Shown: piece after piece, positions 8,353 to 63,432 of the stretch | Numbering within the stretch: the stretch's first letter is position 1 | How the letters are laid out: each line of letters starts with the position of its first letter | Position numbers and translations under genes: made by a program | Notes under the pieces: generated by a model | The model's database searches: none | Told to the model about the DNA's origin: nothing | The model's input: only the letters and a program-made list of their open reading frames with translations | DNA from: Minisyncoccota bacterium | Lineage (GTDB): Bacteria; Patescibacteriota; Minisyncoccia; UBA6257; GWB1-50-10 | NCBI GenBank assembly: GCA_041917695.1 | Contig: JAYRXE010000037.1 | Coordinates: 609,013 to 673,012, forward strand | Length of the DNA stretch: 64,000 nt | Direction of reading: 5' to 3'

Positions 8353-9657
8353 TTACGAAAGTTTCGAAGCGAGAAATTCTCCGAGGTCATCCGCATGGAT
8401 GCGCTCCTGCGCCATCGTGTCTCGGTTCCGCACCGTTACCGTTCCATCCTCAAGCGTCTCAAAATCAACGGTAATGCAGAACGGCGTACCCGCCTCGTCC
8501 TGCGCGCGGTACCGCTTGCCGATATTCCCCCGGTCATCCCACGCAATCATGTGTTCCTTCTTCAAATCCGCGCAAATTCCTTCCGCGCGTTTCACCAACT
8601 CCGGCTTATTCGCCAAAAGCGGAAAGACGGCGGCCTTATAGGGAGCCAGCCGCGGATGAAGCTTCAAGACCGAGCGCGACTCGCCGTTCTCAAGCTTTTC
8701 TTCCGCATACGCATCCATGAGGAAAAAGAGCGCGGCGCGGTCGACCCCGCCCGACGTTTCGATGATGAACGGCAGATAACGCTCTTTCGTTTCCTCGTCG
8801 AAATACCCCATATCCTTCCCCGAAAATTTCTCGTGGCGGGAAAGGTCGAAATCGCCCCGGTGATGAATGCCTTCCATTTCCTTCCATTCATCCCCCGCAC
8901 GATACTCGATGTCGCATGCCGCCCGGGCGTAATGCGCGAGCTCGTCCGGCGCATGGTCCTTGAAATGCAGATTTTCCTCGCGCATCCCAAGGGATACGTA
9001 GAATTTCATGCGCTCCTCCTTCCAATATTCGAACCAATTCCGCGATTCCTCGTCCGAGGGCTTTACGTAGAATTGCACTTCCATCTGCTCGAATTCGCGC
9101 GACCGGAACGTGAAACCGCCCGGCGTGATTTCGTTCCGGAACGCCTTGCCGACCTGCGCGATGCCGAAGGGCAGCTTCACGCGCGATGAGTCAAGCACGT
9201 TTTTAAAATTCACATGCACGCCCTGCGTGATTTCTCCGCGGAGGTACGTTTTTGTCTTTTCGCCTTCAATGACGCCGAGATACGTCTCGACCATCAGATT
9301 GAACGCCTTCGGCTCGGTCAGCTCCCCGCCGCAATCGGGACAGACGTTTTTGTCCAATTGGTCCGCCCGAAAACGATGGTGGCATTTCTTGCACTCTACG
9401 AGAGGATCGCTGAAGGACTCCAAGTGGCCGGAAGCCTCCCATACCTTCGGGCTCATAAGGATTGCCGCATCGAGACCGACGATATCCGTGCGCGATTGCA
9501 CCACCCGGCGCCAAAACTCGTTTTTTATGTTGCGCTTCAATTCGACGCCCAACGGGCCGTAATCCCACGTCCCGGCAAGGCCGCCGTAGATTTCCGAACC
9601 TTGATAGATGAAGCCGCGGCGCTTCGCGAGCGATGCTATGTTTTCGAAATTATTCAT
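8353..9657 (-). CDS. glyQS: Glycyl-tRNA synthetase, dimeric (alpha2) type
   Basis: Class-II synthetase with the zinc-knuckle insertion CKKCHHRFRADQL...CPDCGG and the GGxDR-like motif (SGGVDRAALF). Confidence 0.9.
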   Translation of the reverse strand: MNNFENIASLAKRRGFIYQGSEIYGGLAGTWDYGPLGVELKRNIKNEFWRRVVQSRTDIVGLDAAILMSPKVWEASGHLESFSDPLVECKKCHHRFRADQLDKNVCPDCGGELTEPKAFNLMVETYLGVIEGEKTKTYLRGEITQGVHVNFKNVLDSSRVKLPFGIAQVGKAFRNEITPGGFTFRSREFEQMEVQFYVKPSDEESRNWFEYWKEERMKFYVSLGMREENLHFKDHAPDELAHYARAACDIEYRAGDEWKEMEGIHHRGDFDLSRHEKFSGKDMGYFDEETKERYLPFIIETSGGVDRAALFFLMDAYAEEKLENGESRSVLKLHPRLAPYKAAVFPLLANKPELVKRAEGICADLKKEHMIAWDDRGNIGKRYRAQDEAGTPFCITVDFETLEDGTVTVRNRDTMAQERIHADDLGEFLASKLS

Positions 9658-11537
9658 TATGGATTTACTTTTTCATCCCCCTTCTTATAGGTGGGGTCAT
9701 TCGGTATCTCTGCGGTAATCTTTTCATAAGATTTCTGAATTGCAACCCCGGTGAAGCTGTCGGTGGCGGTAAGCGTCGTTTTTTGGGTAAGCGGCAATAT
9801 CTTCCCGAGCTGGGTTTCGTTCGGAAGCGCTTCAACCTGGAAGACGGCTTCGAAGGCGTTCGAGGAGACGCCCACACCCGGCTCAACCGAAGGAATCTTC
9901 CACTCGACGGCGTTCGTGCGGTCGTTTACCGCCGGCACCGGGGCGCCGCCCGAGGATTTTACAACGCCGGTGAATTTGACCCCCGGTTCCAGCGCGCTTT
10001 TCACCACCACGTCTTTAAGCGTGGTCGCGTAATTTATGATCTTCCAATGGACGGTATATTGTGTCGGCTTGCCGACCTTGAGCGGCATGGAACCCGTGTT
10101 CACGATTCCCCCGGGGTCCTTCCGCCATGCGCTTGCCTCGATTTTCGCATCGCCGGCGATTTTTGTTTCGAACGACGTCCGGATGTAGGTGTTTTCCGCA
10201 CCGCTCCCCTGCGGTTTCGTGGGAGAGGTCGCTTCCACGGTGCCCGTTACGGTAAAATTGCGGTTCACCGCGCTTGGTGCGGGAAACGAGGGAAGTGTCG
10301 TCAAACGGAAAGGGATTTCGACGACCGCTTTCGGCGCCATGATTTTCAATCCCTTCACCTGGGCGGCCGCCCATGAAATCGTGCGCGCCGTCGAATCGAA
10401 ACTTCCCCCGCGCGGTTCCACTTTTGAAAAATCAACGACGCTGCTGTCGAGCTTTACCGCGACGACGACATCCTGCAAATCGATTCCCGAATTATTCTTC
10501 ACCGTAAGCACGTACGGAAGCAGGCTTCCCAATCTGCCGACATATCCGGGCGCGCCGGCGCCCCCGAAATCAACGAGGATCGGCTGGGGCTCCGCGGAAA
10601 GCAAAACAGATTCCTCAAGCACCTCGAAACGGGAGCCGTTCAAGTCCACTGAAAAAACCGCCGGAATCCGCACCGAGAGAGCCGTACTCGACGAGGCGGC
10701 GCCCCGGAAGGAAATCGTACCCTTTTCCCCCGGCGCGAGATCTTCCACATCCCACCGGGTTCCCGAGCCTCCGGCGGAACTCGATACAACCACAAATCCC
10801 GCCGGCGGACGGATTTCGAATGCGGCGGCGGGGAACGTATTCCCCGAAACGTTTTCATACGCGAGGTGTATGTCGAAAAGCGCGTTTTCGGACGGAAGCT
10901 GTTCCTTCTCGACGGATATCTTGAGCCCCGCGGCTTTTATCCCCACCTCTTTTGACGCTTCTATCTTCGCGCCGCCATAGGAGAACACGGCGTCAAAACG
11001 CTCGGTCGAACCCACGTCGCCGACGGCAAAAAGCGTGAATTTCTTCGTATACGTCGCGCCGGGCTCGATAGAGGGAACCGTTTCGGTGAACGCCTCTTCG
11101 CCGTCCGGAGCGAGAAGGCCTGAAGAAAGCGCAACCGCGAGCTCCCCCGAAATGGGACGCGTTTCGTCATTCACGATATCGATGCGCGCCTCAAAAGGGG
11201 TTCCGCGAAAACTTTGGAGTGGAGCATACAGATCGACACTCGCGGCGGTCCCCGTCGCGTTGCCCGCCAAAAAGCGGTTGTACCCCCACCAGGCGGCGCC
11301 GACCGCCACCCCCGCCACGATGGCGATAACGAGAAACGTGAGGATCTTCGACGTCCCTCTCGCAACTTTCCCCGACGACGCCCATGGCGAGGGCTCGCTC
11401 GGGAGGTTTTCGTACGACGGCGTCGGCTCAAGCGGCCGCTCGGAAGCCTCCAAAGGAGGCGCGGAAGGATTTTCTTTCTTCGGCGCCTGCGGCAAGGCTT
11501 CGCTATAGAACTTCCGTTCGATATCTTCGAGGGACAT
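9657..11537 (-). CDS. Large cell-surface protein with a proline-rich N-terminus, a single TM anchor and repeated beta-sandwich (DUF11/CARDB-like) domains
   Basis: The N-terminus reads PQAPKKENPSAPPLEASERPLEPTPSYENLPSEPSP, followed by a TM helix (ILTFLVIAIVAGVAVGAAWW). About 500 aa of repeated beta-rich modules follow. The gene overlaps the glyQS start by 1 nt. Confidence 0.55.
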   Translation of the reverse strand: MSLEDIERKFYSEALPQAPKKENPSAPPLEASERPLEPTPSYENLPSEPSPWASSGKVARGTSKILTFLVIAIVAGVAVGAAWWGYNRFLAGNATGTAASVDLYAPLQSFRGTPFEARIDIVNDETRPISGELAVALSSGLLAPDGEEAFTETVPSIEPGATYTKKFTLFAVGDVGSTERFDAVFSYGGAKIEASKEVGIKAAGLKISVEKEQLPSENALFDIHLAYENVSGNTFPAAAFEIRPPAGFVVVSSSAGGSGTRWDVEDLAPGEKGTISFRGAASSSTALSVRIPAVFSVDLNGSRFEVLEESVLLSAEPQPILVDFGGAGAPGYVGRLGSLLPYVLTVKNNSGIDLQDVVVAVKLDSSVVDFSKVEPRGGSFDSTARTISWAAAQVKGLKIMAPKAVVEIPFRLTTLPSFPAPSAVNRNFTVTGTVEATSPTKPQGSGAENTYIRTSFETKIAGDAKIEASAWRKDPGGIVNTGSMPLKVGKPTQYTVHWKIINYATTLKDVVVKSALEPGVKFTGVVKSSGGAPVPAVNDRTNAVEWKIPSVEPGVGVSSNAFEAVFQVEALPNETQLGKILPLTQKTTLTATDSFTGVAIQKSYEKITAEIPNDPTYKKGDEKVNP

Positions 11538-23946: not shown

Positions 23947-23977
23947 AAACCCGCTTGTTCAGCGGGTTTCTTTTTTA
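23947..23977. terminator. Bidirectional terminator (AAACCCGCT-tgttc-AGCGGGTTT followed by a T-tract)
   Basis: Hairpin between the convergent island ORF and the yraN-like gene. Confidence 0.7.
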
Positions 23978-24364
23978 CACATTCTCGTAGTGATGCTCGA
24001 GCCAGTCGTTTCCAATACGCGTAAGGCAGATGCAATCGCACCGCCAGCCCCTACACTCATCAACCAACTCGGGATGCAGGCGGGCATACGCTTCCGATGC
24101 TCGATGGAACTTTATGAGTTTTGACGGACTCATCTGGTCTTCCGGCCGAATCCCCTCGCTGAAATTCCTCATCGTCTTCACTTCGACAAAAACGAGGGTT
24201 TTATCCCCCGCTTTTGCGACGATGTCTATTTCTCCGAAAGGCTTCCGCCAGTTCAACTCTACTATCCGGCACCCCTTCTCTTCCAGAATCTCGGAAGCCT
24301 TTCTCTCTCCTTCCTTCCCCAGTTCCCTGCTTTCCATACCGGTTTTAATTATAGCACTTTCCAT
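23975..24364 (-). CDS. YraN/UPF0102 family endonuclease-like protein (restriction-endonuclease fold)
   Basis: GEIDIVA...LVFVEVKTM core matching the UPF0102 signature (GEIDLIA...LVFVEVKTR). The real start may be the Met at 24337. Confidence 0.6.
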   Translation of the reverse strand: MESAIIKTGMESRELGKEGERKASEILEEKGCRIVELNWRKPFGEIDIVAKAGDKTLVFVEVKTMRNFSEGIRPEDQMSPSKLIKFHRASEAYARLHPELVDECRGWRCDCICLTRIGNDWLEHHYENV

Positions 24365-24368
24365 TCTT

Positions 24369-24388
24369 AAAATGTTTACCGGTAAACA
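24369..24388. promoter_or_regulatory. Palindromic operator-like site 1: AAAATGTTTA-CCGG-TAAACA (perfect 16-bp palindrome TGTTTACCGGTAAACA at 24373-24388)
   Basis: Read directly from the sequence. It lies immediately upstream of the yraN-like gene. Confidence 0.5.
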
Positions 24389-24429
24389 ACTTACAAAAAA
24401 GCGTAGGATTCATGCGGTTACTGAGTATT

Positions 24430-24461
24430 CAAGCTAGGCCTTAAAATGTAGGCCTAGCTTG
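24430..24461. repeat. Perfect 12-bp inverted repeat CAAGCTAGGCCT-taaaatgt-AGGCCTAGCTTG (stable hairpin or cruciform)
   Basis: Read directly from the sequence. It lies between the two palindromic sites. Confidence 0.6.
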
Positions 24462-24538
24462 ACTATCAGGTTCAGTAAAAACACAACCCGGTTTTTCAAT
24501 TTATTCAGTTTTTCCTGGGTTTTTTGATTTTTTGTTTC

Positions 24539-24562
24539 AAAATGTTTATCGGTAAACATTTT
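24539..24562. promoter_or_regulatory. Palindromic operator-like site 2: AAAATGTTTA-TCGG-TAAACATTTT (10-bp perfect arms)
   Basis: Same half-sites as site 1, 170 bp away. Confidence 0.5.
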
Positions 24563-24646
24563 TAACATGAATTTTGGGCAAAAGTGCAAAAAAGCTAATA
24601 ACCATCTTCCTACCCGGTTCTCAAACCCACACTTCTCCCGATGAAC

Positions 24647-24675
24647 AAAAAAACCGCCCGAGGCGGTTTATTTTC
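24647..24675 (-). terminator. Rho-independent terminator for the phosphoesterase gene (AAACCGCC-cga-GGCGGTTT; T-tract on the minus strand)
   Basis: GC hairpin immediately after the stop at 24675. Confidence 0.65.
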
Positions 24676-25382
24676 TAGACTTTGACTGCTTGAGGCTTTC
24701 CAACGAGTACGGACTCCATCCGCACTTCTCCATCCTTCAAGAGAATATAGGAGCATTTATCGTCCACCCAGCACCCGGAGTTCAGATAGGTCGTTTTCCC
24801 CGACTTCATCGTCAGGCAATCGTGGGTGTGTCCGCAGAACACATAGTCCATGCCTTTTCCGGAAGCATATTCAAGGGCTCCCTTCGCCACCCGCTTGGAG
24901 ACCCTAAGCCAGACCTTATACCGCTTTTTGACGAATCCGCTCATGCGCTTCTTTTGACCGTCAAAACGCTGGATGAGCCGATAGGAGCGGTTCAACGTCG
25001 TCGCGAGCGGCTCGCTCTGGATGAGGAATTTATCGTACTGGTGCCCGTGGAGGACGACGCACCGCTTGCCGCTCCACGTGAAGGAAAAGTGGGTATGCGT
25101 CTCAATACCGAGGGATTTGAAGAACTGCTTCGCGAAGAAGTCATGGTTTCCGGCGACCCAGATGACCCGTTTTCCGGAAAGGGCGATTTCCCTGAGTCGT
25201 GTGAGCAGCTGCCAATGGTCGGGGGAAAGAAATCGGAGGTTCGGATTATCGAGAATGTCGCCGTTTAAAATAAGCGTGCCGAAGTCCGTGCGCGCCAAAA
25301 AGGCGGCGAGATCCTTCGCCCGGGCCATTCGCGAGCCCAAATGCAGGTCGGAGACGATAAGAATAGAGGAATCGATGTCCAT
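24675..25382 (-). CDS. Calcineurin-like metallophosphoesterase (LpxH-like family)
   Basis: SDLHLG, GDILD, GNHD and GHTH motifs in the canonical order. Confidence 0.75.
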   Translation of the reverse strand: MDIDSSILIVSDLHLGSRMARAKDLAAFLARTDFGTLILNGDILDNPNLRFLSPDHWQLLTRLREIALSGKRVIWVAGNHDFFAKQFFKSLGIETHTHFSFTWSGKRCVVLHGHQYDKFLIQSEPLATTLNRSYRLIQRFDGQKKRMSGFVKKRYKVWLRVSKRVAKGALEYASGKGMDYVFCGHTHDCLTMKSGKTTYLNSGCWVDDKCSYILLKDGEVRMESVLVGKPQAVKV

Positions 25383-36139: not shown

Positions 36140-36154
36140 GTAACGCCCTTCCGG

Positions 36155-36227
36155 TGGGTCAGGAAGGATTTGAACCTTCGGTCGCCGAGGTATAAGCTCG
36201 GTGCTTTAACCACTAAGCTACTGACCC
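36155..36227 (-). tRNA. tRNA-Ile with anticodon UAU (reads AUA without a lysidine-modified CAU)
   Basis: Manual fold: acceptor GGGTCAG/CTGACCC, D-arm GCTT-AGTGGTTA-AAGC, anticodon stem CCGAG/CTCGG with loop CTTATAC (anticodon positions 34-36 = TAT), T-arm GAAGG-TTCAAAT-CCTTC. 73 nt. Confidence 0.65.
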
Positions 36228-43924: not shown

Positions 43925-45220
43925 ATGCAAAAATTCAATCTTAAATACCTCGTTTTCGGCATTGCCGGCCTCTTTGTGCTTTTCGTCGCATTGGTTTTCA
44001 CGGGTGTCATCCCCGGCCTCCGCGAAAAAGCCGACAAGCCCACTGTTACGGGATCAATCACCGTATGGACGGTAGGGGAGGAAACGCGCGACCGTGAAAA
44101 AGCCTGGAAAGACCTGGTGAAATCGTTTCAGGGGACCTACCCCGGCGTGAAAGTCGAGAGCAGGAATTTCCGCACCTACGAATCGTATGAAAACGCCCTC
44201 GCGGATTCCTTCGGCTCCGGAGAGACTCCCGACGTCTTTATGGTTTCGAACACGGCATTCCCCCGGTACGAGAACAAGCTTGCCCCGGCGCCCGCCTCGC
44301 TCTTTTCCCTTGAATCGCTCCGCGCTCTCTTTCCAAAAACCGTTGAGAACGACTTCGTTTCAGAGGGGAAAATCTATGCGCTTCCGCTCTCGATCGACAC
44401 GCTCGCCCTCATTTATAACCGGAATCTCATCGACCAGGCCGCCGTTGCCGTCCCGAAAACCTGGGCTGAATTTGAAAGCGCCGTTCCGCAACTCACCCGC
44501 GCGGACGTGTCGGGTATCCAGTCCGCAGGCGCGGCGATTGGCACCGCCGGAAACGTTCCGTATGCCGCAGACATCATTTCGCTCCTCATGCTCCAGCGAA
44601 ACATTCCCATGACCGCGGGAAGCCGTGCGGTTTTCAACACCGCCCCGGGAAAAGACGCGCTGGGGTTCTACACGCAATTCGCCGACCGTGCAGGCGCCGC
44701 ATATTCCTGGAATGAAACCATGCCCCAGGCGACGGATTTCTTCGCCCAGGAAAAAGTGGGCATGCTGATCGGCTATCGCTCGACGATCGATGCGCTGAAA
44801 TCGAAGAATTCATTCCTGGATATCGGCGTCGCTGAAATTCCTTCCGATAGCGCTTCGTCCAAAAAATCTTTCGCCCGCTACATGGCTCTCGCCGTCTCAA
44901 AGCAGTCAAAAAGCCAGCCGGCGGCATGGGCGTTCGTATCAGCCGTCTCCACGAACGAAACGTGGCTCAAACCGTACTTGGCCCTCACGAAAGAAGCTCC
45001 CGCCCTCCGTTCCCTCGCCCTTCTTTCGAAAGACGACCCGGCTATCGGCGTATTTTCACGGCAGGCGCTTACGGCTACGACCTGGAAACAGGCGGACGAC
45101 CGCGCTGTCGCGAGCGCCTTTCAGGCGATGATCGAAAGCGTGAATACGAACGAGAAAACGCCGGAGCGGGCCCTTGATGACGCAGCCGCGGAGATCTCCC
45201 GCTCGATGCAAAAAAAATAA
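43925..45220 (+). CDS. Extracellular solute-binding protein (carbohydrate-type ABC substrate-binding fold) with an N-terminal TM anchor; no adjacent permease genes
   Basis: SBP_bac_1-like length and composition. It sits alone, followed by the pilin-like array. Confidence 0.55.
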   Translation: MQKFNLKYLVFGIAGLFVLFVALVFTGVIPGLREKADKPTVTGSITVWTVGEETRDREKAWKDLVKSFQGTYPGVKVESRNFRTYESYENALADSFGSGETPDVFMVSNTAFPRYENKLAPAPASLFSLESLRALFPKTVENDFVSEGKIYALPLSIDTLALIYNRNLIDQAAVAVPKTWAEFESAVPQLTRADVSGIQSAGAAIGTAGNVPYAADIISLLMLQRNIPMTAGSRAVFNTAPGKDALGFYTQFADRAGAAYSWNETMPQATDFFAQEKVGMLIGYRSTIDALKSKNSFLDIGVAEIPSDSASSKKSFARYMALAVSKQSKSQPAAWAFVSAVSTNETWLKPYLALTKEAPALRSLALLSKDDPAIGVFSRQALTATTWKQADDRAVASAFQAMIESVNTNEKTPERALDDAAAEISRSMQKK

Positions 45221-45224
45221 TCCT

Positions 45225-45704
45225 ATGCGCACCCTCATTTCACTCTTCTTTTTTTCACTAATCGCCCTTACCGCCGCTGTTCCTGCCGCCGCTCTCGCCC
45301 AGACGGGAAACGAAAGCATCACCAACATTTGGCGAGGCACGGGAAACGGAACAATCACCTGCAATCAGCGGGGCATGCAGTGCACGCTTTGCGACGGCAT
45401 CCGCGTTGCGAAGAATGTCACTGAATTTCTTACGGTGATTGCCGTCGCCCTTGCCGTCCTCATTATCATGTACGGCGCGCTCCGCATGATGACGTCTGGC
45501 GGAAATGAGAACTGGCTCTCTGCGGGGAAGGAGGCGATTCTTAAGGCACTCCTCGGCCTCGCCATCGTCGCCGCCTCGTGGCTCATCGTCGACACGGTAT
45601 TCAAGGCGCTTACTGAGAACGAAACGTGGAATTCGTTCGACCCGATTGGGTGCAAGAATGGCGCATTTATCCAGAATCCTCCGAAGGGGAACCAAAATCC
45701 GTAA
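45225..45704 (+). CDS. Pilin-like small secreted protein, paralog 1 (VirB2/TrbC-like topology: signal peptide, two hydrophobic helices flanking a GG-charged loop)
   Basis: Signal peptide ...AAALA|QTG. Helix, then RMMTSGGNENWLSAGKEA, then helix. The start is assigned to the ATG at 45225. Confidence 0.5.
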   Translation: MRTLISLFFFSLIALTAAVPAAALAQTGNESITNIWRGTGNGTITCNQRGMQCTLCDGIRVAKNVTEFLTVIAVALAVLIIMYGALRMMTSGGNENWLSAGKEAILKALLGLAIVAASWLIVDTVFKALTENETWNSFDPIGCKNGAFIQNPPKGNQNP

Positions 45705-46889: not shown

Positions 46890-46974
46890 GCTGGGGTGGC
46901 GGAATTGGCAGACGCGCAAGGCTTAGGACCTTGTGAGAGTTTCTCTCGTGGGAGTTCAAGTCTCCCCCCTAGCA
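46890..46974 (+). tRNA. tRNA-Leu (anticodon UAG), class II with a long variable arm
   Basis: Manual fold: acceptor GCTGGGG/CCCTAGC (one G-U), anticodon stem CAAGG/CCTTG with loop CTTAGGA, 15-nt variable arm, T-arm GGGAG-TTCAAGT-CTCCC, discriminator A. 85 nt. Confidence 0.85.
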
Positions 46975-46981
46975 CAAAACC

Positions 46982-48022
46982 ATGGAACACGAATCTGAAA
47001 AGAAAACGCTCGCACGGCTCATGCCGTATGTTTCACTGTGCTTTTTTTTCCTCGTCTCTGCAGGAGCGGCGGCATTCCAGAATCAACGGATAAACCCCGG
47101 CATCTTCCGGACGATGTTCGCGGGACCGCAACAGCAGATCTTTTTTTCCGGCCTTCGCACGCTTGTGATATTCATACTTTTTGGCCTGCTTTTTTCTGCG
47201 GTGGGATTTTCCATACGGGCGGTGCTCCACCGGCACGATGCCGCCCGCGTTCGCGAGTACCTTAAAAAATCCCCGAAAACCACCGCTCAGATTGCACGCC
47301 GCATCGTTTCATCCTTTTGGCTCGTCATTATGAACCTCATGCTCGTGCCAATCGTCATTTCATCCATCAACCGTTCCGCCGTCGGACGATTATGGGACGA
47401 ACGCATTCTCGCTCTCGACCGCACACTCACCGGTCTTTACCCCTTCATCGCGCTCGGCAATATTGCATATCCTTCGTGGCTCTTTGAATCCATCGCCTTC
47501 TCTTACTTCCAAATCGGCTCCGCACTCGTTGTTTTTGCCATCGTGCTCCTCATGAAGAGCAAACGGCTTTACCACGAGTTCGTCGCGGCGTATTTCATAT
47601 CCTTTATCGCTCTCATCCTCCTGTGGTTTTCCTTTCCCACCATTTCTCCGGTCGCGCGTTTCATTAAAAACGACTTCGCGCTCCGCACTTCTCCCGCGGT
47701 GAGCCGGGAACTTCACAATTACCACCCCAGCGAGCGCCTCAAGGGCATCCATCGGGATTGGAGCATCACGTCGGCGACCGCCTTCCCGAGCGCGCATATC
47801 GTCTGGCTCACGCTCATCGGAATCTATCTCTTCCGGTTCAACCGGAAGGGGTTTCTCATTACCTTGCCTTTCCTGCTTCTTTCAGCGTCGGGCACGGTGA
47901 TTCTCGCGGTGCATTATCTCGCCGACGTCTTCGCCGGGATTCTCGTCGCCGTTTTGGGAATGATTATCGCCGATTGGCTCGCGAAAAAACCGCTCCCTCA
48001 CCGATTACGACGCCTGCCGTGA
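46982..48022 (+). CDS. PAP2-superfamily membrane phosphatase (type-2 phosphatidic-acid-phosphatase fold) with an extended N-terminal membrane domain
   Basis: C-terminal PSGH-like (SFPSAHI) and SRxxxxxHxxxD-like (HYLADVFAGI) motifs. About 8 TM helices. Confidence 0.55.
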   Translation: MEHESEKKTLARLMPYVSLCFFFLVSAGAAAFQNQRINPGIFRTMFAGPQQQIFFSGLRTLVIFILFGLLFSAVGFSIRAVLHRHDAARVREYLKKSPKTTAQIARRIVSSFWLVIMNLMLVPIVISSINRSAVGRLWDERILALDRTLTGLYPFIALGNIAYPSWLFESIAFSYFQIGSALVVFAIVLLMKSKRLYHEFVAAYFISFIALILLWFSFPTISPVARFIKNDFALRTSPAVSRELHNYHPSERLKGIHRDWSITSATAFPSAHIVWLTLIGIYLFRFNRKGFLITLPFLLLSASGTVILAVHYLADVFAGILVAVLGMIIADWLAKKPLPHRLRRLP

Positions 48023-48882
48023 AAACTTTTATGTATCTCTTTCAGCTCTTTGTTGGTGAGATGCGTATAGATTTGTGTCGTTGAGACATTCGCGTGCCCC
48101 AAGAGCGCCTGCACCGAACGGAGGTCGGCGCCGTTTATTAAAAGGTCGGTTGCAAACGAATGCCGTATTTGGTGCGGATGGACGCGTTTTGCAATGCCCG
48201 CTTTCCGCGCATACCGGTCGACTAACCTCTCCACAGTGCGGGAGGTGATGCGCCCGATGACCTTTCCGGCGCGGGAAAAACTCGCGAAAAGATACTCTTC
48301 GGGATCCGTGCGCTTTTCGAGATAGCGCTTGATCGCCGTCTTCGCTCCGTCGGAAAGGAAGACGATGCGCAATTTGTCGCCCTTTCCGCGAACGGAGAGC
48401 TCTCCGCGGACGAGGTCCATGCGGCGGGGGAGCGCGCACAATTCCGAGACGCGCAAGCCGGTGGAAAAAAGCGTTTCGAGAAGCGCTCGGTCCCGGAGCG
48501 CGGCGATATCGTTTCCTTCGGGCGCCTTGAGGAGCCTTTCCAATTCGGCATACTCAAGCGTTTCGATATCCCGCCGCGCTATTTTCGGGAGCTCAATCAC
48601 GTCCGGAGAGACCGGCGCCCCGCCCCGCTTCGCCAAAAACTTCAGGAAATTCCGTATGGCGATGACGTAATAGCTTTGCGTCGCTTTCTTGAGATTTTTG
48701 CGCGCGAGCGAAGCGCGGAAGGTCCGAATACTTCCCTCTGAGATGTCCGCCGTACTTTTCAGATTCGTCTCGGCGAAAAAAGCGCGCAAATAACGGCTGT
48801 AATTCTCAACTGTTTTCTCCGACCGGTTCTTTTCGATGACCAAATAGTCGAGGTATTCCTGGAGTGCCGTATCTGCCTTCAT
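47998..48882 (-). CDS. xerC: Site-specific tyrosine recombinase, XerC/XerD type
   Basis: N-terminal SAM-like domain (LQEYLDYLVIEKNRSEKTVENY). Catalytic R...K...HxxR...Y (ARGGAP, HQIRHSFAT, LGHANVSTTQIYTHL). 294 aa from the ATG at 48882. The long track ORF is over-extended. It overlaps the PAP2 gene convergently by 25 nt. Confidence 0.85.
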   Translation of the reverse strand: MKADTALQEYLDYLVIEKNRSEKTVENYSRYLRAFFAETNLKSTADISEGSIRTFRASLARKNLKKATQSYYVIAIRNFLKFLAKRGGAPVSPDVIELPKIARRDIETLEYAELERLLKAPEGNDIAALRDRALLETLFSTGLRVSELCALPRRMDLVRGELSVRGKGDKLRIVFLSDGAKTAIKRYLEKRTDPEEYLFASFSRAGKVIGRITSRTVERLVDRYARKAGIAKRVHPHQIRHSFATDLLINGADLRSVQALLGHANVSTTQIYTHLTNKELKEIHKSFHGRRRNR

Positions 48883-48915
48883 TGAGAGTAGTGTACCACG
48901 ATTTCCCTGCCTATT

Positions 48916-48944
48916 TTGACATTTTCCGGGCTTTACGGTAGAAT
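48916..48944 (+). promoter_or_regulatory. Consensus sigma70 promoter of rpsO: -35 TTGACA, 17-nt spacer, -10 TAGAAT; 10 nt before the ATG
   Basis: Exact hexamers and spacing. The predicted transcription start is 3-4 nt from the start codon, so the mRNA is leaderless or near-leaderless. Confidence 0.65.
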
Positions 48945-48954
48945 CCTTCCATCT

Positions 48955-49221
48955 ATGCTTTCTAAGACGAAAAAGACCCGCGTCATCGCGGACTATAAAC
49001 TGCACGAAACGGACACGGGTTCCGCCGAGGTGCAAATCGCGCTTTTGACGCGCCAGATCAAGGAACTCGCCGACCACCTGAAAAAACACCCGAAAGACCA
49101 CCACTCCCGCCGCGGCCTTCTGATGATGGTCGGCAAACGCCGCCGGTTCATGCAGTTTCTCCAGAAAAGCGACGTTAAAAAGTACGAGAAGCTTTCGAAG
49201 AAACTCGCGCTCGACCTCTAA
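48955..49221 (+). CDS. rpsO: 30S ribosomal protein S15
   Basis: MLSKTKKTRVIADYKLHETDTGSAEVQIALLTRQIKELADHLKKHPKDHHSRRGLLMMVGKRRR. Start assigned to the ATG at 48955. The track start is over-extended. Confidence 0.9.
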   Translation: MLSKTKKTRVIADYKLHETDTGSAEVQIALLTRQIKELADHLKKHPKDHHSRRGLLMMVGKRRRFMQFLQKSDVKKYEKLSKKLALDL

Positions 49222-49236
49222 GCTCTTCGTCCGGCC

Positions 49237-49788
49237 ATGCACGCAAACGAACGGGTCGGAATCTTCGTCGATGCCCAGAACATCTACCATTCGGCGAAAA
49301 ATCTCCGCGCCTCGCGGGTAAACTTTTCCGAGCTGAAACGCGCCCTCCTTGCGGGGCGTTCTGCTATACGCGCCTTTTCATACGTGGTGCGGAGCGAAGA
49401 AGAACTCCAGGAAAAAACCGGCGAGGAGTCTTTTTTTGAAGCCCTCAAAAACGCGGGCTTTGAATTAAGGCTGAAAGACATCCAGGTATACCCCGGAGGA
49501 TTTAAGAAAGCCGATTGGGACGTGGGACTCGCCATCGATGCCGTCCGTATCGCCTCCTCGCTGGATACGGTCATTCTCGTAACAGGAGACGGAGACTTCA
49601 TTCCGCTCGTTGAATACCTCAAATGGGGATTGGGAAAGCGGGTGGAAGTTGCGGGATTTTCACGGACGACCTCCGGCAAGCTCCGTGAAGTCGCCGACCA
49701 ATTCACCGAACTCGACAAGCTCCCCAAAATGCTCATCCCCATCAACCAAAAACGGGGGCGGGGACGATTCCCAAAAAAGGCGAAATAA
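49237..49788 (+). CDS. NYN/LabA-like domain protein (predicted PIN-like ribonuclease), inserted between rpsO and pnp
   Basis: GIFVDAQNIY...VILVTGDGDFIPLV pattern of NYN-domain proteins. Confidence 0.6.
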   Translation: MHANERVGIFVDAQNIYHSAKNLRASRVNFSELKRALLAGRSAIRAFSYVVRSEEELQEKTGEESFFEALKNAGFELRLKDIQVYPGGFKKADWDVGLAIDAVRIASSLDTVILVTGDGDFIPLVEYLKWGLGKRVEVAGFSRTTSGKLREVADQFTELDKLPKMLIPINQKRGRGRFPKKAK

Positions 49789-53354: not shown

Positions 53355-54881
53355 ATGAGTTCCGTCCCTCGCCTTCTATCCGCAGAGCTTGAAGGAATAA
53401 CGGGGGAACCGGTATATGTGGAGGCCGACGTGAACGTCGGCCTCCATTCTTTTACCATTGTCGGCTTGGCGGACAAGGCTGTTTCCGAAGCGAAGGAACG
53501 GGTGAATTCAGCCCTGAAAAATGCGGGCGTGAAACCGCCGACTAAGGAAAATCGGCGCATCACCATCAACCTCGCCCCCGCAGACCTCAAAAAAGCCGGT
53601 TCGCGGTTTGATCTTCCGATTGCGCTCGCGTATCTGATGGCGACCGGACAGATGAAGCCTTTCCCAGCCGCGGACAAGCTTTTCGTCGGCGAATTGTCGC
53701 TCGACGGGACGCTTCGTCCCGTCACGGGCGTCATTAACATTGCCCGCCTTGCGAAACGTCTCCGTGTCGCCGAGCTTTTCGTGCCGCGCGAAAACGCGGA
53801 CGAAGCCGCGCTTATGGCAGGCGTGAAGATTATCCCCGTCGGGCACATCCGCGATGCGATACATCATCTTGAGGGGATCGCCCCCATCCGGCCGGCGGCG
53901 GCCGGCGTACTTGCGGGCGTTCATGCGCATTCAAAAACTTCGATAGACGACGTGCGTGGCCAGGAAAATGCCAAACGCGCGCTTCTCATCGCTGCGGCGG
54001 GCGGGCACAATATCCTTTTTTCGGGACCGCCGGGGGCGGGGAAAACCATGCTCGCCGAAGCATTCGCATCGCTTCTGCCTCCGCCTTCGGAAAACGAGAT
54101 TCTCGAAATCATGGAAGTGTGGAGCGCCGCCGGAGAAAAATTTGAACGGTACGCGCGTCCGTTCCGCTCACCTCATCACACCGCAAGTCCCAGCGCCATT
54201 CTCGGAGGCGGAACAAATCCGCGCCCCGGAGAAATCAGTCTCGCGCACCGCGGCGTCCTCTTTCTCGACGAACTGCCGGAATTCAGGCGGGACGTCCTCG
54301 AAGGACTCCGGCAACCGCTTGAAAACGGCACGGTCTGCGTCGCTCGTTCGAAAAAAAGCCTTGAATTTCCGGCTCGATTCATTTTCGTCGCCGCGATGAA
54401 CCCATGCCCCTGCGGATTTTTCGGCGATAAGGAGAAAGAATGCCGTTGCACCGCCTATGAGGTCTTAAAATACCAAAAACGCGTTTCAGGCCCACTCCTC
54501 GACCGCATTGATCTTCAGCTTTTCGTTCCGCGCGTACCGTATGAAGCGCTTGCCGAGAGACGGGAAAATCGGGAGATGAAACTGCGCGACCAGATTTTCC
54601 GCGCGCGCGAATTCCAGCAGACACGGCTCCGTTCGCTCGGGATTTCCGGCGAATCAAACGCAGAAATCGGCGCAAAGGATATCGAAGCAATCGCGGAACT
54701 TGAACCGGCGGGCGAAGCTTTTCTCAAGTCAGCCATGGAGAAGTCTTTTGTTTCCCCCCGAAGCTACCACAAGATACTTAAAGTAGCCCGAACTATCGCC
54801 GACCTCGACGGTGCGGAAACAATCGGAACGCCTCATCTTGCGGAAGCCTTCCATTACCGCCTTCGGGCGGGAGAGGTATAA
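53355..54881 (+). CDS. comM: YifB/ComM-family Mg-chelatase-like AAA+ ATPase
   Basis: Lon-like N-terminal domain, Walker A (GPPGAGKT), C4 motif (CPCGFFGDKEKECRC), C-terminal helical domain. An AAGGAA ribosome-binding site is upstream. Confidence 0.85.
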   Translation: MSSVPRLLSAELEGITGEPVYVEADVNVGLHSFTIVGLADKAVSEAKERVNSALKNAGVKPPTKENRRITINLAPADLKKAGSRFDLPIALAYLMATGQMKPFPAADKLFVGELSLDGTLRPVTGVINIARLAKRLRVAELFVPRENADEAALMAGVKIIPVGHIRDAIHHLEGIAPIRPAAAGVLAGVHAHSKTSIDDVRGQENAKRALLIAAAGGHNILFSGPPGAGKTMLAEAFASLLPPPSENEILEIMEVWSAAGEKFERYARPFRSPHHTASPSAILGGGTNPRPGEISLAHRGVLFLDELPEFRRDVLEGLRQPLENGTVCVARSKKSLEFPARFIFVAAMNPCPCGFFGDKEKECRCTAYEVLKYQKRVSGPLLDRIDLQLFVPRVPYEALAERRENREMKLRDQIFRAREFQQTRLRSLGISGESNAEIGAKDIEAIAELEPAGEAFLKSAMEKSFVSPRSYHKILKVARTIADLDGAETIGTPHLAEAFHYRLRAGEV

Positions 54882-56522: not shown

Positions 56523-57290
56523 ATGAAATCGCGCATGAACCCGAAAAGGAAATTTTATACCGCGCTCTGGATACTTGGCGGCGCGCTTTTCGTCTCAACG
56601 TGGATCATACTCGGCACCACCCACCCGGCAATCGATCCCATTTCGATGTTGCGCGGAGAAAAAACTTCGGACAACCGCTTCCTTTTCGGCGGGGAGAATG
56701 GAAGCGACCCACTGAACACTTCGGACTTCACCTCGAACGTCATCGAAAAATACGGTTTCCATATCGCCATCCAAAATCCGGACGGGCCGGTCGATAAATA
56801 CCTCGCCCTCCCTTCGGCGGAGAAACTTGAACTCGCGCTTCAGGAAGAACTCAAAAAAAGCATCCCGTACGACGCGGCGTCGGAAAGTGATTTGCGCGTG
56901 ACGAACGATACGTCGGACGCCACCGTGCGGCGATATCTGGAGAATTTGAAAAACACCGCCGCAAAACAGCGCATTGATTTCAATACGGATCTCGGCGTCG
57001 CCTTGAACGACCTCACTTCAAAAAACGATTCGGGAAAGCTCGAGAAGCTCGCAACGAAGTTTGATTCGCTTGCCGGGGATCTGCTTTCCGTCACCGTTCC
57101 CGGCTCCTGGAAAGTCTTCCATCTCGAACTCGTGAATATCCACCGCCATAAAGCGGCGGCACTCCATGCGCTTGCCGACATAGATAACGATCCGGTGAAA
57201 GCTGCCGTGGCCGCCGCGGAACTTCGGAGCATCGGAGCGGCAGAGCTGTCGCTTTCCGCTATCCTCTCGGAAAAAAGCAAAGACCTGTAA
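56523..57290 (+). CDS. Membrane-anchored extracytoplasmic protein, hypothetical
   Basis: N-terminal TM anchor (FYTALWILGGALFVSTWIIL), then a 220-aa soluble domain. Confidence 0.45.
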   Translation: MKSRMNPKRKFYTALWILGGALFVSTWIILGTTHPAIDPISMLRGEKTSDNRFLFGGENGSDPLNTSDFTSNVIEKYGFHIAIQNPDGPVDKYLALPSAEKLELALQEELKKSIPYDAASESDLRVTNDTSDATVRRYLENLKNTAAKQRIDFNTDLGVALNDLTSKNDSGKLEKLATKFDSLAGDLLSVTVPGSWKVFHLELVNIHRHKAAALHALADIDNDPVKAAVAAAELRSIGAAELSLSAILSEKSKDL

Positions 57291-57292
57291 GC

Positions 57293-59011
57293 ATGCACCG
57301 TTCAATGTATTCAAAAATCATCACCGCGGCACTTATTCCCGTACTCATCACCGGCGGCTTTTTCTTCCCGCACAAAGCGCGAGCGCAATCGGTGGATAAA
57401 TGCCTTTCAGGAGCCCTTTCCGGCATCATGGGTGATATTTTGGGCGGGTTTCTCCCGTCGATTCCTGGCCTGGATCAGAAGGTCCCCACGTCCGACCAAG
57501 GCGCCCAAAAAGGAACGCGCGCGTTTCAGTTCGACGAATGCATCAAAAGCATCACTGATGCCGCGCTCAAGGTTGCGCTCCAGAACCTGAAGAAAAAACT
57601 TCTCGACAACATGGTTGACGATACCATTGCCTGGATTCGCGACGACCGCGAGCCGAAATACATAACGAACTTCAAAGACTTCACGGAAAGCGCCGTCGAG
57701 GAAGCGGCGAATAACACCCTCCGCGAAATCGACCTCGCGAACCTCTATCCGGACCCTGCGCTTCAGGAAGGCATCAAAGCGGCGATCATGGAACGCGTCC
57801 GCTCGGTCAGATTTTCCGACACCATTGCGTGCACCCTTACCGATGAAGTGAATGTCGATGAATTCAAAGGTGATTTTAGAAAAGGCGGCTTTGCCGGACT
57901 CCAAGTCGCTTCCATGCCGAATAATAACCCCGAAGACGTTGCAATGATGGCGCGTCTTTTCGCCCAGGCGAATGAAGAACAGCAACTTGCTGCAAAGAAC
58001 GCTCTTTCCTCGGGCCTCACACAATCCGATGTTGATTGCACCCAATGGGTGCTCGCGAAATCGAGCGGCGGCATCGGCGGAGCGGCGGGCGCATATTACA
58101 AAGACGCCAACGGTAACATGAAGATTGAAATCACGGAACCTCAACAGGAAGCGCCCGTTTCGAATATTCCCAACACGAAATACATTTGCCAGGATGACGC
58201 GACCGGAAGCGGCCAATATGTATCCACTCCGCCTACCGTTGTTGACGCTATCGCCGCCAAAGTGGCGACGCAGGATATTGATTACGTATTAGGCATGGAT
58301 GATATCCAGGGCTATATTTCCGGAATCGCCGACGCGGTCTTCAATCGAATTCTTAAGGGCGGATTCAATCTCTTTGAACGGGGAGGGGACCCAAGCTCAT
58401 ATCTTGAAGGCCTCGAGGGGGATATTGAAAACTATCAAAGCATCGAAACGGGAGAGAAGCTTCAAGGCCAGGCGAATGAACAGGTAAAACGCGCGCTTAT
58501 CTCCAAGACCAATCTTCTCATCGATACGGCTTCAACAAGCCTTTCGGCAACGAATGCGGCGCTTACGAAAGCAACTGCGCTCTTACCAATGATGAATGCG
58601 ACCTCAAGCCCCGAGGGGCTTGCCGTGTGCATGGATTACCATCCCGCCTTCTTCCCGGCATTTATAAATCCCGACCCGACTCCTTCGTGGTGGCCCACGG
58701 GAAACCGGACCGTCATCATGCAAAAACTCCGCGCCGTTTCGGGAACTCTCACGGGCCTCACTAATCCTTTCAAGACGTTTTGGGAGAATGGGAAAACAAG
58801 CGCCGCTGATTACCAGACCCAAGCCCAGGCGATCACCGGTTCGACTCCGCCGAATGTGATTTCGACGCTCCAGGCGAATGTGAACGCATTGGAAGCCTCG
58901 CTGAACGCAAAAACAGGGGAATCGAGCGCCCATAATTCCCTCGTGAACGATTTCTATGCGCAGGGAGCGCGGGAGCGCAACCGGTGCGTCGGTCCGGCAA
59001 ATTCGAGCTAA
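57293..59011 (+). CDS. Large secreted protein, hypothetical
   Basis: Signal peptide (...HKARA|QSV). 572 aa, no recognised motifs. Its stop overlaps the next start (TAATG). Confidence 0.45.
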   Translation: MHRSMYSKIITAALIPVLITGGFFFPHKARAQSVDKCLSGALSGIMGDILGGFLPSIPGLDQKVPTSDQGAQKGTRAFQFDECIKSITDAALKVALQNLKKKLLDNMVDDTIAWIRDDREPKYITNFKDFTESAVEEAANNTLREIDLANLYPDPALQEGIKAAIMERVRSVRFSDTIACTLTDEVNVDEFKGDFRKGGFAGLQVASMPNNNPEDVAMMARLFAQANEEQQLAAKNALSSGLTQSDVDCTQWVLAKSSGGIGGAAGAYYKDANGNMKIEITEPQQEAPVSNIPNTKYICQDDATGSGQYVSTPPTVVDAIAAKVATQDIDYVLGMDDIQGYISGIADAVFNRILKGGFNLFERGGDPSSYLEGLEGDIENYQSIETGEKLQGQANEQVKRALISKTNLLIDTASTSLSATNAALTKATALLPMMNATSSPEGLAVCMDYHPAFFPAFINPDPTPSWWPTGNRTVIMQKLRAVSGTLTGLTNPFKTFWENGKTSAADYQTQAQAITGSTPPNVISTLQANVNALEASLNAKTGESSAHNSLVNDFYAQGARERNRCVGPANSS

Positions 59012-61572: not shown

Positions 61573-61577
61573 CCACC

Positions 61578-62921
61578 ATGCCCGTTTCTCAAAAAAACCA
61601 AGCACCCCTCGCAGAAGAGTATCAGGAAATCCTGGTTCGGCTTCCGATATGGGATGACGGCGTGTGGGAGCCTCTGCAAAAGAAGGATTTTAAGGCCGCC
61701 ATGGACCGCTTCTTCACGCTGATGGGGTATTACACGCGAAAGACCGTCCAGGATATTTATTGGAAAAATATCATCCAGGGCGATGAAGCGGTGCGGGGCA
61801 GCGTCACTTCCGACGAATGGCGGATGCAAATCGTCCCGCGATTGGCGCAGATATTCCTTGAAATAGGGGAGGAGACGCTTTTTGAAAAAATCTATTCATC
61901 TCTTGATTGGGAATGGCTCGCGGCGTTTCATTTTTCGGTCGTCGGCGAGATTCCCGGAATCAGCGTTGATGAGAAGGCCTCGTATTTAACCAAGGAAAAG
62001 CCGTGGCTTCTCGATTTTTTCATTGGAAGCCCTATGAATGCGCTTGCAGAAGGTCTTTTGTTCGATGTCTCGGAAGGCTTGCCTCGTCCCACCCAATCGC
62101 TTGCTTCCTACCCCGCAGAACTTTCACCGGCGCTCAAAAAAGCCTTCTTCTCCGTGCCTTCCGCAAAAAAAATAACCACTCTTTCTTCAGAATTGAAGTG
62201 GGAGCGCCAACAAACGGTTGATTTTTCATACGTCGTAGGGCTCTTCCTTTTAGGCGTCGAGGAAAAAGAGCGCTGGGAAGAATTATTTGAAAAAATCTTC
62301 TCCGGTTATTCCCCCGAACAAAAAGAAAACGTTTCAAAGCTTGCCTACCGCTTGCTGGTAAAGCCGCTTGAGGGCGATACGCGCGACCTCAGAAAAGGGA
62401 CCGAATCAGTCATCCAGGAAAAGGAAGTCTCCGTTCCGGTCGCGGTCGTCGAGGAAAAATCCGAGAAGGCGGTCAAGATAAACAAGGTTGAATTCCCGAA
62501 GGCGGCGGAAAACCAGGCGGTGGATCCCAGCGCGCCTTTCATGCTCCGCACCGAAGAGGACAGCGCCCTGAAAAAGACTCCGGCAGGAAACCCGGAAAAA
62601 GGCTTTTCTTTCCCGTTCGGATTCTTCAAGCGGAGCGCTCAACCCACACAGGCCCCCCGCGTTTCGGTAAAAATCGAATCCGCCGCGGAGCCTGCGGGAC
62701 CGACGGGTACGCCCAAAGTGCAAAAACCGGCGCAGAGTGTTTTCGAAACCGTCCAAAAAGACATCGCCCCCGCTCCGGCCGAAGGAGATTCCGTTTTCGG
62801 GTCTCTCGGAAAGGACTTGAAGGAGGCGGGAGCAAAGAAAACCGTCCATTACAGCCAATTCCACACCCCCTTGCCGGAGCCGGCTCCGCATATAGAGGGA
62901 AACACGGTATCCTTCAAATAA
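61578..62921 (+). CDS. Hypothetical soluble protein with an acidic/Pro-rich C-terminal half
   Basis: 447 aa, no TM helices, no motifs recognised. It sits between the VirB6-like and VirB3-like genes. Confidence 0.4.
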   Translation: MPVSQKNQAPLAEEYQEILVRLPIWDDGVWEPLQKKDFKAAMDRFFTLMGYYTRKTVQDIYWKNIIQGDEAVRGSVTSDEWRMQIVPRLAQIFLEIGEETLFEKIYSSLDWEWLAAFHFSVVGEIPGISVDEKASYLTKEKPWLLDFFIGSPMNALAEGLLFDVSEGLPRPTQSLASYPAELSPALKKAFFSVPSAKKITTLSSELKWERQQTVDFSYVVGLFLLGVEEKERWEELFEKIFSGYSPEQKENVSKLAYRLLVKPLEGDTRDLRKGTESVIQEKEVSVPVAVVEEKSEKAVKINKVEFPKAAENQAVDPSAPFMLRTEEDSALKKTPAGNPEKGFSFPFGFFKRSAQPTQAPRVSVKIESAAEPAGPTGTPKVQKPAQSVFETVQKDIAPAPAEGDSVFGSLGKDLKEAGAKKTVHYSQFHTPLPEPAPHIEGNTVSFK

Positions 62922-62922
62922 C

Positions 62923-63432
62923 ATGTCCACGTTCCAGGTTCCCCAGTTCGTTGACCAAAAGCCGAAGATTATCGGCTCTTTGAATATGGTGCAGTTCGGT
63001 TATATCGCAGTGGCCGGACTCATCATTTTCGGGCTCTACTACGTATTCAATCTTTTCGTGTGGATAATCGTCGCCCTTCCCATTGCCGGCGTCGCCGGCT
63101 TTCTCGCCTTCGCAAAGATCAACGGCCAGGAATCGCATAAAATCCTCGGTTCGATGCTGAGCTTCGTCGGGGGCTCAAAGACCTACGTGTGGCAGCGGCC
63201 GTCGCCGAAGGTCGTCGACCCCGTCGCCCAAACGTCCATTGAGAAAGCGCGGCATTCGATGAGCATCCAGGAAAAGATAAAATCCATCGCCCTCCACGTG
63301 ACAACCGGCAACGCCTTTGCAAAAGGCAAGGCGGCCCCGGAAGAACCGGGTATCGTGCGCGAAAAACCGGGATTCGAAGTTGCTACCTTTGAAACCGGCG
63401 AGGAAAAACTGGTAAAGCGCGTGGATTACTAG
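62923..63432 (+). CDS. PrgI/VirB3-like small membrane protein (two adjacent TM helices)
   Basis: QFVDQKPKIIG followed by two TM helices (YIAVAGLIIFGLYYVF, VWIIVALPIAGVAGFLAFA), as in PrgI-family proteins that precede VirB4 genes. Confidence 0.4.
   Translation: MSTFQVPQFVDQKPKIIGSLNMVQFGYIAVAGLIIFGLYYVFNLFVWIIVALPIAGVAGFLAFAKINGQESHKILGSMLSFVGGSKTYVWQRPSPKVVDPVAQTSIEKARHSMSIQEKIKSIALHVTTGNAFAKGKAAPEEPGIVREKPGFEVATFETGEEKLVKRVDY

Follow-up and report, generated by a model that had tools for sequence, protein, structure and literature searches.

Introduction

Chromosomal parS, the site of ParB (Spo0J), is treated as being among the most invariant protein-binding sites of bacteria. Noc is a paralogue present in the Bacillota, and its binding sites (Noc binding sites, NBS) are dispersed over the chromosome and not clustered. 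In the plasmid and phage class of centromeres, P1 parS is a composite of two box types and a bend. Here, we describe a locus in a 64 kb stretch of DNA of a Minisyncoccota bacterium (contig JAYRXE010000037.1; this whole stretch is called the window, and positions are window coordinates), in which two palindromes are located in the 310 bp gap between a metallophosphoesterase gene and yraN. On balance, these palindromes are probably lineage-variant parS-type (ParB) sites within a conserved composite cis element. This element is most likely a single-copy, multi-motif, non-coding component of the chromosome that Paceibacteria-type members of the Candidate Phyla Radiation (CPR) have kept upstream of yraN.

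CPR organisms are thought to depend heavily on DNA uptake, and a search for literature on parS or ParB in CPR/Patescibacteria retrieved nothing relevant in the library covered. The parS consensus is TGTTTCAC-GTGAAACA, and that of the NBS is TATTTCCC-GGGAAATA, which illustrates that recognition of position 6 of the half-site can evolve in a ParB-family protein (PMC7383237). Promiscuity at position 6 is obtainable by single ParB substitutions: Lys at 179 or 184 results in promiscuity, and Arg at 201 in a preference for C at this position, while the residues R173 and G201 have been described as absolutely conserved (PMC7383237). Binding of ParB to half-sites has also been documented (PMC5961200). 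In Streptococcus pneumoniae, spreading of ParB from a parS beside comCDE modulates competence (PMC4488948), and YraN is a nuclease partnered with ComM in the processing of D-loops during transformation (bioRxiv 10.1101/2024.02.06.579203).

The palindromes upstream of yraN resemble parS

Site 1 (AAAATGTTTACCGGTAAACA, 24369–24388) contains the perfect 16 bp palindrome TGTTTACCGGTAAACA (24373–24388) with the half-site TGTTTACC, whereas site 2 (AAAATGTTTATCGGTAAACATTTT, 24539–24562) reads TGTTTACCGATAAACA on the minus strand; no strand is assigned to either site, and both are variant parS-type candidates. The two sites have a 20 nt direct repeat (AAAATGTTTAYCGGTAAACA) in common, with a start-to-start distance of 170 bp. 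For TGTTTA-N4-TAAACA with at most one mismatch, two matches were found in the 64 kb, compared to 0.03 expected, and none of 100 shuffled sequences reached two matches. A search of the window with the 16-mer that allowed three mismatches yielded no additional site (0.13 expected), and the window thus contains a single site cluster. The first-pass annotation had reported two palindromes at this locus and had taken them for binding sites of a dimeric protein. The palindromes are present where it had placed them, and their non-random occurrence supports their reading as probable dimer-type protein-binding sites. On the minus strand, site 2 is followed 4 nt further 3′ by an extra half-site, GAAACA (24533–24538, in the context TTTTGAAACA). 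The GAAACA flank is also found 3′ of the palindrome in two related loci, L010 and L016, and is replaced by GAGACA in L084.

The window site TGTTTACC-GGTAAACA is equal to canonical parS, TGTTTCACGTGAAACA, at 12 of the 16 positions, and it departs from parS only at positions 5–6 of each half-site. This match, which had been missed in the first-pass annotation, is the strongest lead. Like chromosomal parS, the window sites are 16 bp palindromes with an outer TGTTT...AAACA and a central CG, they are clustered at one locus, and relatives hold exact canonical parS at the orthologous place. Additional half-sites are a further shared feature (compare Pseudomonas aeruginosa; PMC5961200). There are also differences from chromosomal parS. 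Positions 5–6 are AC or AT in the window and R-Y across the clade, but CA in parS; A4/T4 flanks are conserved in the clade sites; the clade packs up to 12 sites into one intergenic region; and two more conserved motifs accompany the clade sites.

The NBS of the Bacillota shares with the window site the C at position 6 and the CCGG core. However, position 1 of the window site is G, as in parS, but A in the NBS, and the A at position 5 is found in neither the NBS nor parS.

Conservation of the sites in relatives

The comparison loci (labeled L plus a number) were gathered via YraN homology alone, among the matches listed, which did not include the genome of the window itself, or by exact-protein look-up. 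The site pattern TGTTT-NN-CG-NN-AAACA has 12 fixed positions, and the counts were based on TGTTTNNCGNNAAACA with at most one mismatch. Among the site-bearing CPR loci, the region upstream of yraN harbors 1 to 12 sites per locus. In L007, about 700 bp upstream of yraN contain nine sites with all 12 fixed positions, three of which are exact copies of TGTTTCACGTGAAACA, as well as two more sites with two mismatches. Six sites with all 12 fixed positions, TGTTTAACGTTAAACA among them, are present in L013. The intergenic region of L085 that is orthologous to that of the window contains three copies of the exact window 16-mer, TGTTTACCGGTAAACA, and L004 has two copies of TGTTTACCGATAAACA, the 16-mer of which is identical to that of site 2, inside a 78 bp tandem unit. 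Upstream of yraN, TGTTTGTCGGCAAACA is present in L084 and TGTTTGTCGACAAACA in L010 and L170, whereas L008 has a 1 kb non-coding stretch that is rich in TGTTTCACG half-sites. Altogether, canonical parS and graded variants thereof occupy the orthologous place in L007, L013, L149, L085 and L004, and the window sites are orthologous to, or continuous with, the bona fide parS of these relatives.

Upstream of yraN in L008 (2256–2825 of that locus), about ten TGTTTCACGTTTTACA units follow one another about 39 bp apart, and each unit consists of a canonical parS half-site and a non-palindromic partner.

The palindromes thus form a sequence family that is conserved in position and restricted to one locus. 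In the loci that had not been selected by the motif, 31 sites were found upstream of yraN and 2 elsewhere. No arrays were found in non-CPR yraN loci among the matches listed. As a logo, the half-site reads aaaaTGTTT(A>G>C)(C>T>A)C, with A-rich flanks; positions 5–6 are represented by AC, AT, GC, CA, GT and AA, often within one array, and isolated half-sites also occur within arrays. The site spacings among relatives range from about 34 to 336 bp (for example, 78, 85, 142 and 222 bp). In 13 of the 22 site-bearing loci, the last site is at most 85 bp away from the yraN start, whereas the sites are about 0.5–1.5 kb away from yraN in 6 of the 22. One or more genes intervene between the module and yraN in L004, L168 and L169, and L009, L012 and L016 have a gap of at least about 0.5 kb. 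The yraN gene is the sole constant neighbor of the module across the loci, usually with nusA next to it; other neighbors are comM (L101) and comEC (L159).

These distributions also bear on the regulatory reading of the first-pass annotation, according to which the two sites are operators about 17 helical turns apart that mediate repressor looping. Like the looping operators of lac, gal and deo, the window has two near-identical palindromes within 200 bp of a promoter. However, in contrast to those systems, neither the copy number (1–12) nor the spacing is conserved between orthologous loci, genes can intervene, and no cognate regulator is encoded nearby; looping was therefore not borne out. 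The regulon that had been envisaged did not materialize either, because all sites of the 64 kb window are at one locus. Both in the window and in the CPR loci, there are a few clustered sites rather than sites spread over many promoters.

It is unlikely that a dedicated transcription factor other than ParB, encoded elsewhere, represses yraN or a small set of competence genes from these sites, with or without looping, which in essence is the reading of the first-pass annotation. Such a factor would account for the placement of site 1, which is 35 nt away from the yraN start and adjoins or overlaps the −35 position of a candidate extended −10 promoter, for the short distance of the last site in the 13 loci mentioned above, for yraN as the only constant neighbor, and for comM and comEC as occasional neighbors, YraN being a partner of ComM (bioRxiv 10.1101/2024.02.06.579203). 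Yet up to 12 sites plus half-sites that are free in number and spacing are unlike operators, and the intervening genes and long gaps in six loci do not agree with repression of yraN. The recA and comM genes of the window lack upstream sites, and exact canonical parS is present at the orthologous position of L007.

A conserved composite element

The sites are part of a module that, in the orientation of yraN, has the 5′ to 3′ order GAAAAMC repeats, motif A, palindrome. The GAAAAMC or A-tract repeats form its 5′ part (24487–24532, minus strand) and correspond to the plus-strand T-tracts that the first-pass annotation had described as phased. T-tracts are indeed present at 24492–24533, but their phasing is loose, with center spacings of 17, 11.5 and 8 bp. 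Homologous repeats spaced by about 8–10 bp are found in L004, L009, L010, L012, L015 and L016, and L084 has one such spacing.

Motif A (GATAATGCGATRAAACCTACA; conserved form CYGATAATGCGATRAAACCTACAYTTT) comprises 21–27 nt. Its 21-mer is present without mismatch in L004 (two copies), L009 (three), L012, L015 (two) and L084, that is, in genomes in which YraN is only about 45–55% identical, and the motif is recognizable in L005, L010, L016, L108 and L169. The palindrome follows 13–50 bp beyond motif A and is often succeeded by TTTTGAAACA. In the window, copy 1 (CCTGATAGTCAAGCTAGGCCTACATTTT, 24443–24470, minus strand) has diverged from CYGATAATGCGATRAAACCTACAYTTT; the form closest to it is AGTAGTCATACTAGGCCTACAAT, which occurs three times in L085. 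Copy 2 (CTCAGTAACCGCATGAATCCTACGCTTTTTT, 24395–24425, minus strand), which aligns with motif A, is located directly 5′ of site 1 and is most similar to a third, plus-strand copy of L016 (about 2358–2389, CTGAGTAATCGCATGGATACTACATTTTTT). Elsewhere in the window, motif A has no match, nor was one found among 2.9 million viral contigs. Motif A is a cis element without a known binder. A sigma-70 promoter reading of motif A was discarded, as inspection by eye revealed no acceptable −35/−10 spacing. The module of the window also has a 26 nt block (24592–24617, minus strand, CCGGGTAGGAAGATGGTTATTAGCTT) in common with L085 (5268–5293, CCCGATAGGTAGATGGTTACTAGCTT).

Copy 1 of motif A contributes the 5′ arm and the loop of a perfect 12 bp inverted repeat, CAAGCTAGGCCT-N8-AGGCCTAGCTTG (24430–24461, no strand assigned), which could form a hairpin or a cruciform. 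The first-pass annotation was right about the existence and the perfection of this repeat. The predicted folding energy is −23.8 kcal/mol (z = −6.8, both strands), and this high stability is one argument for a small RNA, a 44-aa peptide or a cis-acting RNA with the hairpin and the palindromes as RNA structures. In addition, gene callers annotate a 44-aa open reading frame (ORF; 24568–24434, minus strand), and the region is situated between a terminator and a gene start. Still, an RNA or a peptide is very improbable as the explanation of the element. The arm at 24430–24441 duplicates part of motif A in inverted orientation and is lineage-specific; the second arm is absent in L085, L084 and L004, the closest relatives, and other parts of motif A have undergone independent inverted duplications in L009, L012 and L016. 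Moreover, RNAalifold detected no conserved pairs in 15 motif-A units, and the suggestion that the hairpin is a conserved RNA or recombination element was thus not upheld. With conserved pairing lacking, motif A would be recognized as DNA by an as yet hypothetical factor.

As RNA, the palindromes themselves fold weakly: the predicted energy is −3.8 kcal/mol for one (z = −1.2) and −6.3 kcal/mol for the other (z = −3.3), with 2 of 200 shuffled sequences being as stable as the latter. Neither the window nor any of 16 related loci had a match to an Rfam family (Rfam 15; gathering and permissive thresholds for the window, gathering threshold for the related loci); the best hits had at most 26 bits, compared to thresholds of 43–150 bits. 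ARAGORN and Rfam yielded nothing in the intergenic region. The hairpin was also rejected as an intrinsic terminator, because no T-run, and hence no U-tract in a transcript, follows the stem on either strand and the terminator scan was silent. The similarity of the 44-aa ORF to other sequences is confined to about ten residues that are encoded by the palindrome, on both strands, and we therefore treated the ORF as spurious.

The repeats of the module might also suggest a miniature mobile element, or an insertion mediated by repeats, of about 200 bp with the palindromes as terminal repeats, in line with the 20 nt direct repeat that flanks 150 bp and with 39 nt imperfect inverted arms. This is extremely improbable, given that no other copy of either motif exists in the 64 kb, that motif A lacks a match in the viral contigs, and that the element has one fixed syntenic position across genomes with 45–60% identical YraN.

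A third arrangement that the module recalls is that of an origin of replication, oriC or its relic, in which the GAAAAMC repeats would serve as unwinding region or as iterons and motif A (AAACCTACA) as an unusual DnaA box, with parS alongside. AT-rich direct repeats followed by a repeated 9–12-mer and then parS would indeed agree with this. Furthermore, AAACCTAC represents the first 8 nt of what we take to be the DnaA box of Thermotoga maritima, AAACCTACCACC; three DnaA boxes (TTTTCCACA and two copies of TTATCCACA) are found within 70 bp adjoining the array in L101 (4524–4593), and the array of L008 includes two DnaA-box-like 9-mers. For the window, however, an origin is quite improbable. Throughout the 64 kb, genes of either orientation have a plus-strand GC skew of about −0.05, to the left as well as to the right of the locus. 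With this constant sign, the window contains neither an origin nor a terminus and lies on one replichore. Also, TTATCCACA with at most one mismatch was not found in the intergenic region of the window, and no dnaA or dnaN is present within 6–10 kb in any annotated relative or near the window locus.

The three DnaA boxes of L101 are located between comM and yraN and could represent a real oriC beside the array, so that proximity to the origin is possible in some lineages. In L170, from the organism of L010, the skew mostly follows the coding strand, unlike in the window.

The probable yraN promoter and the gene context

The yraN gene (UPF0102, PD-(D/E)xK nuclease, 120 aa; 23975–24337, minus strand; PF02021, E 1.4e-19) is located downstream of the module in the window and in the relatives examined. 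The start of the gene at ATG 24337 was assigned by the gene callers and agrees with the alignment and the lengths of the homologues; it is 35 nt away from site 1. The first-pass annotation had let site 1 abut the yraN start. This holds for the first in-frame ATG (24364), which is 9 nt away, but not for the preferred start. A putative extended −10 element, TGcTATAAT (24348–24356, minus strand), was read by eye 10 nt before ATG 24337, and the yraN mRNA is probably leaderless or near-leaderless. The element was not reported by the promoter consensus scan because a −35 match is absent; site 1 coincides with the −35 position. A −10-like hexamer 6–8 nt before the yraN ATG is also present in L085, L015 and L084. 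The notion that site 1 is located at the probable yraN promoter is thus supported by the putative extended −10 element.

On the other side, the module is bounded by the intrinsic terminator (24651–24669, minus strand) of the metallophosphoesterase gene (24675–25382, minus strand), which is its upstream neighbor. The order recA-HTH_25-ftsK-...-module-yraN-nusA-H+PPase is conserved. The names of the YraN homologues (Patescibacteria, Paceibacterota, Minisyncoccia, Liptonbacteria), together with an identity of only 61% to the nearest homologue other than the protein of the window itself, indicate a CPR bacterium without close sequenced relatives. The identical region is present in two Logan contigs.

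Neither ParB nor a plausible regulator gene was found in the 64 kb window, and the sole helix-turn-helix protein encoded within 10 kb is a RodZ-like HTH_25 protein; the earlier statement that the binding factor is not encoded nearby was therefore correct. A TrmB-family regulator with a conserved location close to the locus in L084 and L168 was dismissed as a candidate, since it is absent in the window. The comM gene (Mg_chelatase/ChlI domains), which encodes the helicase partner in transformation, is located at 53355–54881 (plus strand), 29 kb from yraN.

A model for parS-type sites in the CPR

In the interpretation that we favor, a ParB dimer would recognize each TGTTT-NN-CG-NN-AAACA palindrome, with the outer TGTTT, the central CG and the A4/T4 flank being fixed for recognition and positions 5–6 of the half-site being relaxed. 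The shift at these positions from C-A in canonical parS to mostly R-Y in the clade would reflect an altered or promiscuous specificity of ParB. Adjacent sites and isolated half-sites would be combined into one chromosome partition or condensin-loading complex, and the GAAAAMC repeats and motif A, including its window-specific inverted duplicate, would be co-conserved parts of the element. That ParB binds here, and that its binding may affect yraN, is inferred from the sequences. Occupancy of site 1 may damp yraN, a gene for a transformation nuclease, because this site coincides with the −35 position in the probable leaderless promoter; a more general modulation of yraN is conceivable, because the last site is so close to the start in 13 of the 22 loci, and only 35 bp away here. 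The precedent is the parS beside comCDE in S. pneumoniae, where a parS-type site also directly adjoins a natural-transformation gene, and by analogy centromere binding could affect yraN expression. The genes differ, however, in that the neighbor here is the yraN nuclease gene and not the comCDE regulators, and the link here is positional only.

Several observations weigh against the assignment of the palindromes to parS. The window sites were not returned in a search with canonical parS (TGTTNCACGTGAAACA) and up to three mismatches, as they have four mismatches each. ParB (PF02195 / TIGR00180) was not found in the 64 kb window or in the CPR loci compared; for the window, the search consisted of a motif regular expression, tblastn with Spo0J, and a Pfam search of about 50 ORFs. 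The 77-fold higher overall density of sites upstream of yraN (77 sites in 43.5 kb, compared to 4 in the other 175 kb) speaks for the assignment, but it includes loci from a metagenome scan that were chosen by the motif itself and are thus not independent for the enrichment. Arrays packed densely into one intergenic region are typically found in plasmid centromeres rather than in chromosomal ones. Furthermore, the association with yraN and the close last sites would also fit a transcription factor, and motif A and the GAAAAMC repeats are unexplained by the ParB model.

These two motifs would find a place in a compact, vertically inherited composite CPR centromere that would consist of relaxed parS sites, motif A and GAAAAMC repeats spaced by about 9 bp, would be recognized by a ParB with altered specificity residues and a hypothetical partner protein, and would be physically coupled to the yraN promoter. 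Several short motifs and bent or A-tract DNA in a compact cis element are also features of the composite centromeres of plasmids and phages, but the sequences are unrelated, and the context of the window is chromosomal and vertically conserved. We regard this fully composite version as doubtful; if true, it would link chromosome segregation and organization to competence.

If the favored parS-type reading is correct, the centromere site would be drifting in a large uncultured radiation at exactly those positions in which parS and the Noc site differ, in some cases within one array. This would amount to a natural experiment on how ParB specificity evolves, and the sites would serve as a practical marker for the partition locus in CPR genomes. 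The adjacency of motif A to yraN offers a testable link between chromosome organization and natural transformation.

Similar palindromes in metagenomes and next to parB genes

A scan of metagenome contigs with ATGTTTAYCGRTAAACAT resulted in 82 loci, most of which had single, chance-level sites in unrelated organisms. The scan also revealed nine further CPR loci with yraN and/or nusA beside the match, and eight of the nine had arrays of 2–12 sites. In three unrelated contigs (L166, L150 and L143), the variant adjoins genes of the ParB/RepB/Spo0J family, which suggests that such palindromes are used next to partition genes elsewhere. L143 and L150 are plasmid-like parA-parB cassettes, whereas L166 encodes a chromosomal-type ParB. 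In the latter, the variant is 335 bp away from parB, and no canonical parS is present in the 12 kb of this locus.

The ParB gene of L166 is located at 9190–10071 and TGTTTATCGATAAACA at 8855–8870. Presumably, this ParB has Ala at the position of Spo0J Gly177, which by our own numbering offset corresponds to Caulobacter G201; the assignment is tentative, as it depends on the Spo0J reference sequence used. The plasmid-like parA-parB-rep cassette of L143 harbors three palindromes (1034–1219; also in L131 and L132) that are identical except for their central 4 bp: TGTTTA-ACGT-TAAACA, TGTTTA-TCGA-TAAACA and TGTTTA-GCGC-TAAACA. Two further candidates were followed up. A weak tblastn match of Spo0J at 36672 of the window was rejected, since a direct BLASTP comparison revealed no real similarity, and a 309-aa ORF beside an extra site in L153 had no match in Pfam, NCBIfam or the Protein Data Bank (PDB).

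Other features of the window

In bacteria, it is uncommon for a UAU anticodon for Ile to be encoded in the genome. The window has a tRNA-Ile with the anticodon TAT (36153–36227, minus strand), which adjoins a tRNA-Val(TAC). In the region 46890–49290, a PAP2-family gene and a gene for a tyrosine recombinase (Phage_integrase) come after a tRNA-Leu(TAG); an integrated element may have its edge here, or the recombinase may be of the Xer type. Genes for proteins similar to type IV secretion system (T4SS) pilins and to PrgI (45174–45704 and 56523–63432) flank large ORFs of 572, 862 and 447 aa that had no Pfam match, and together these genes may constitute a type IV secretion or DNA-transfer-like cluster.

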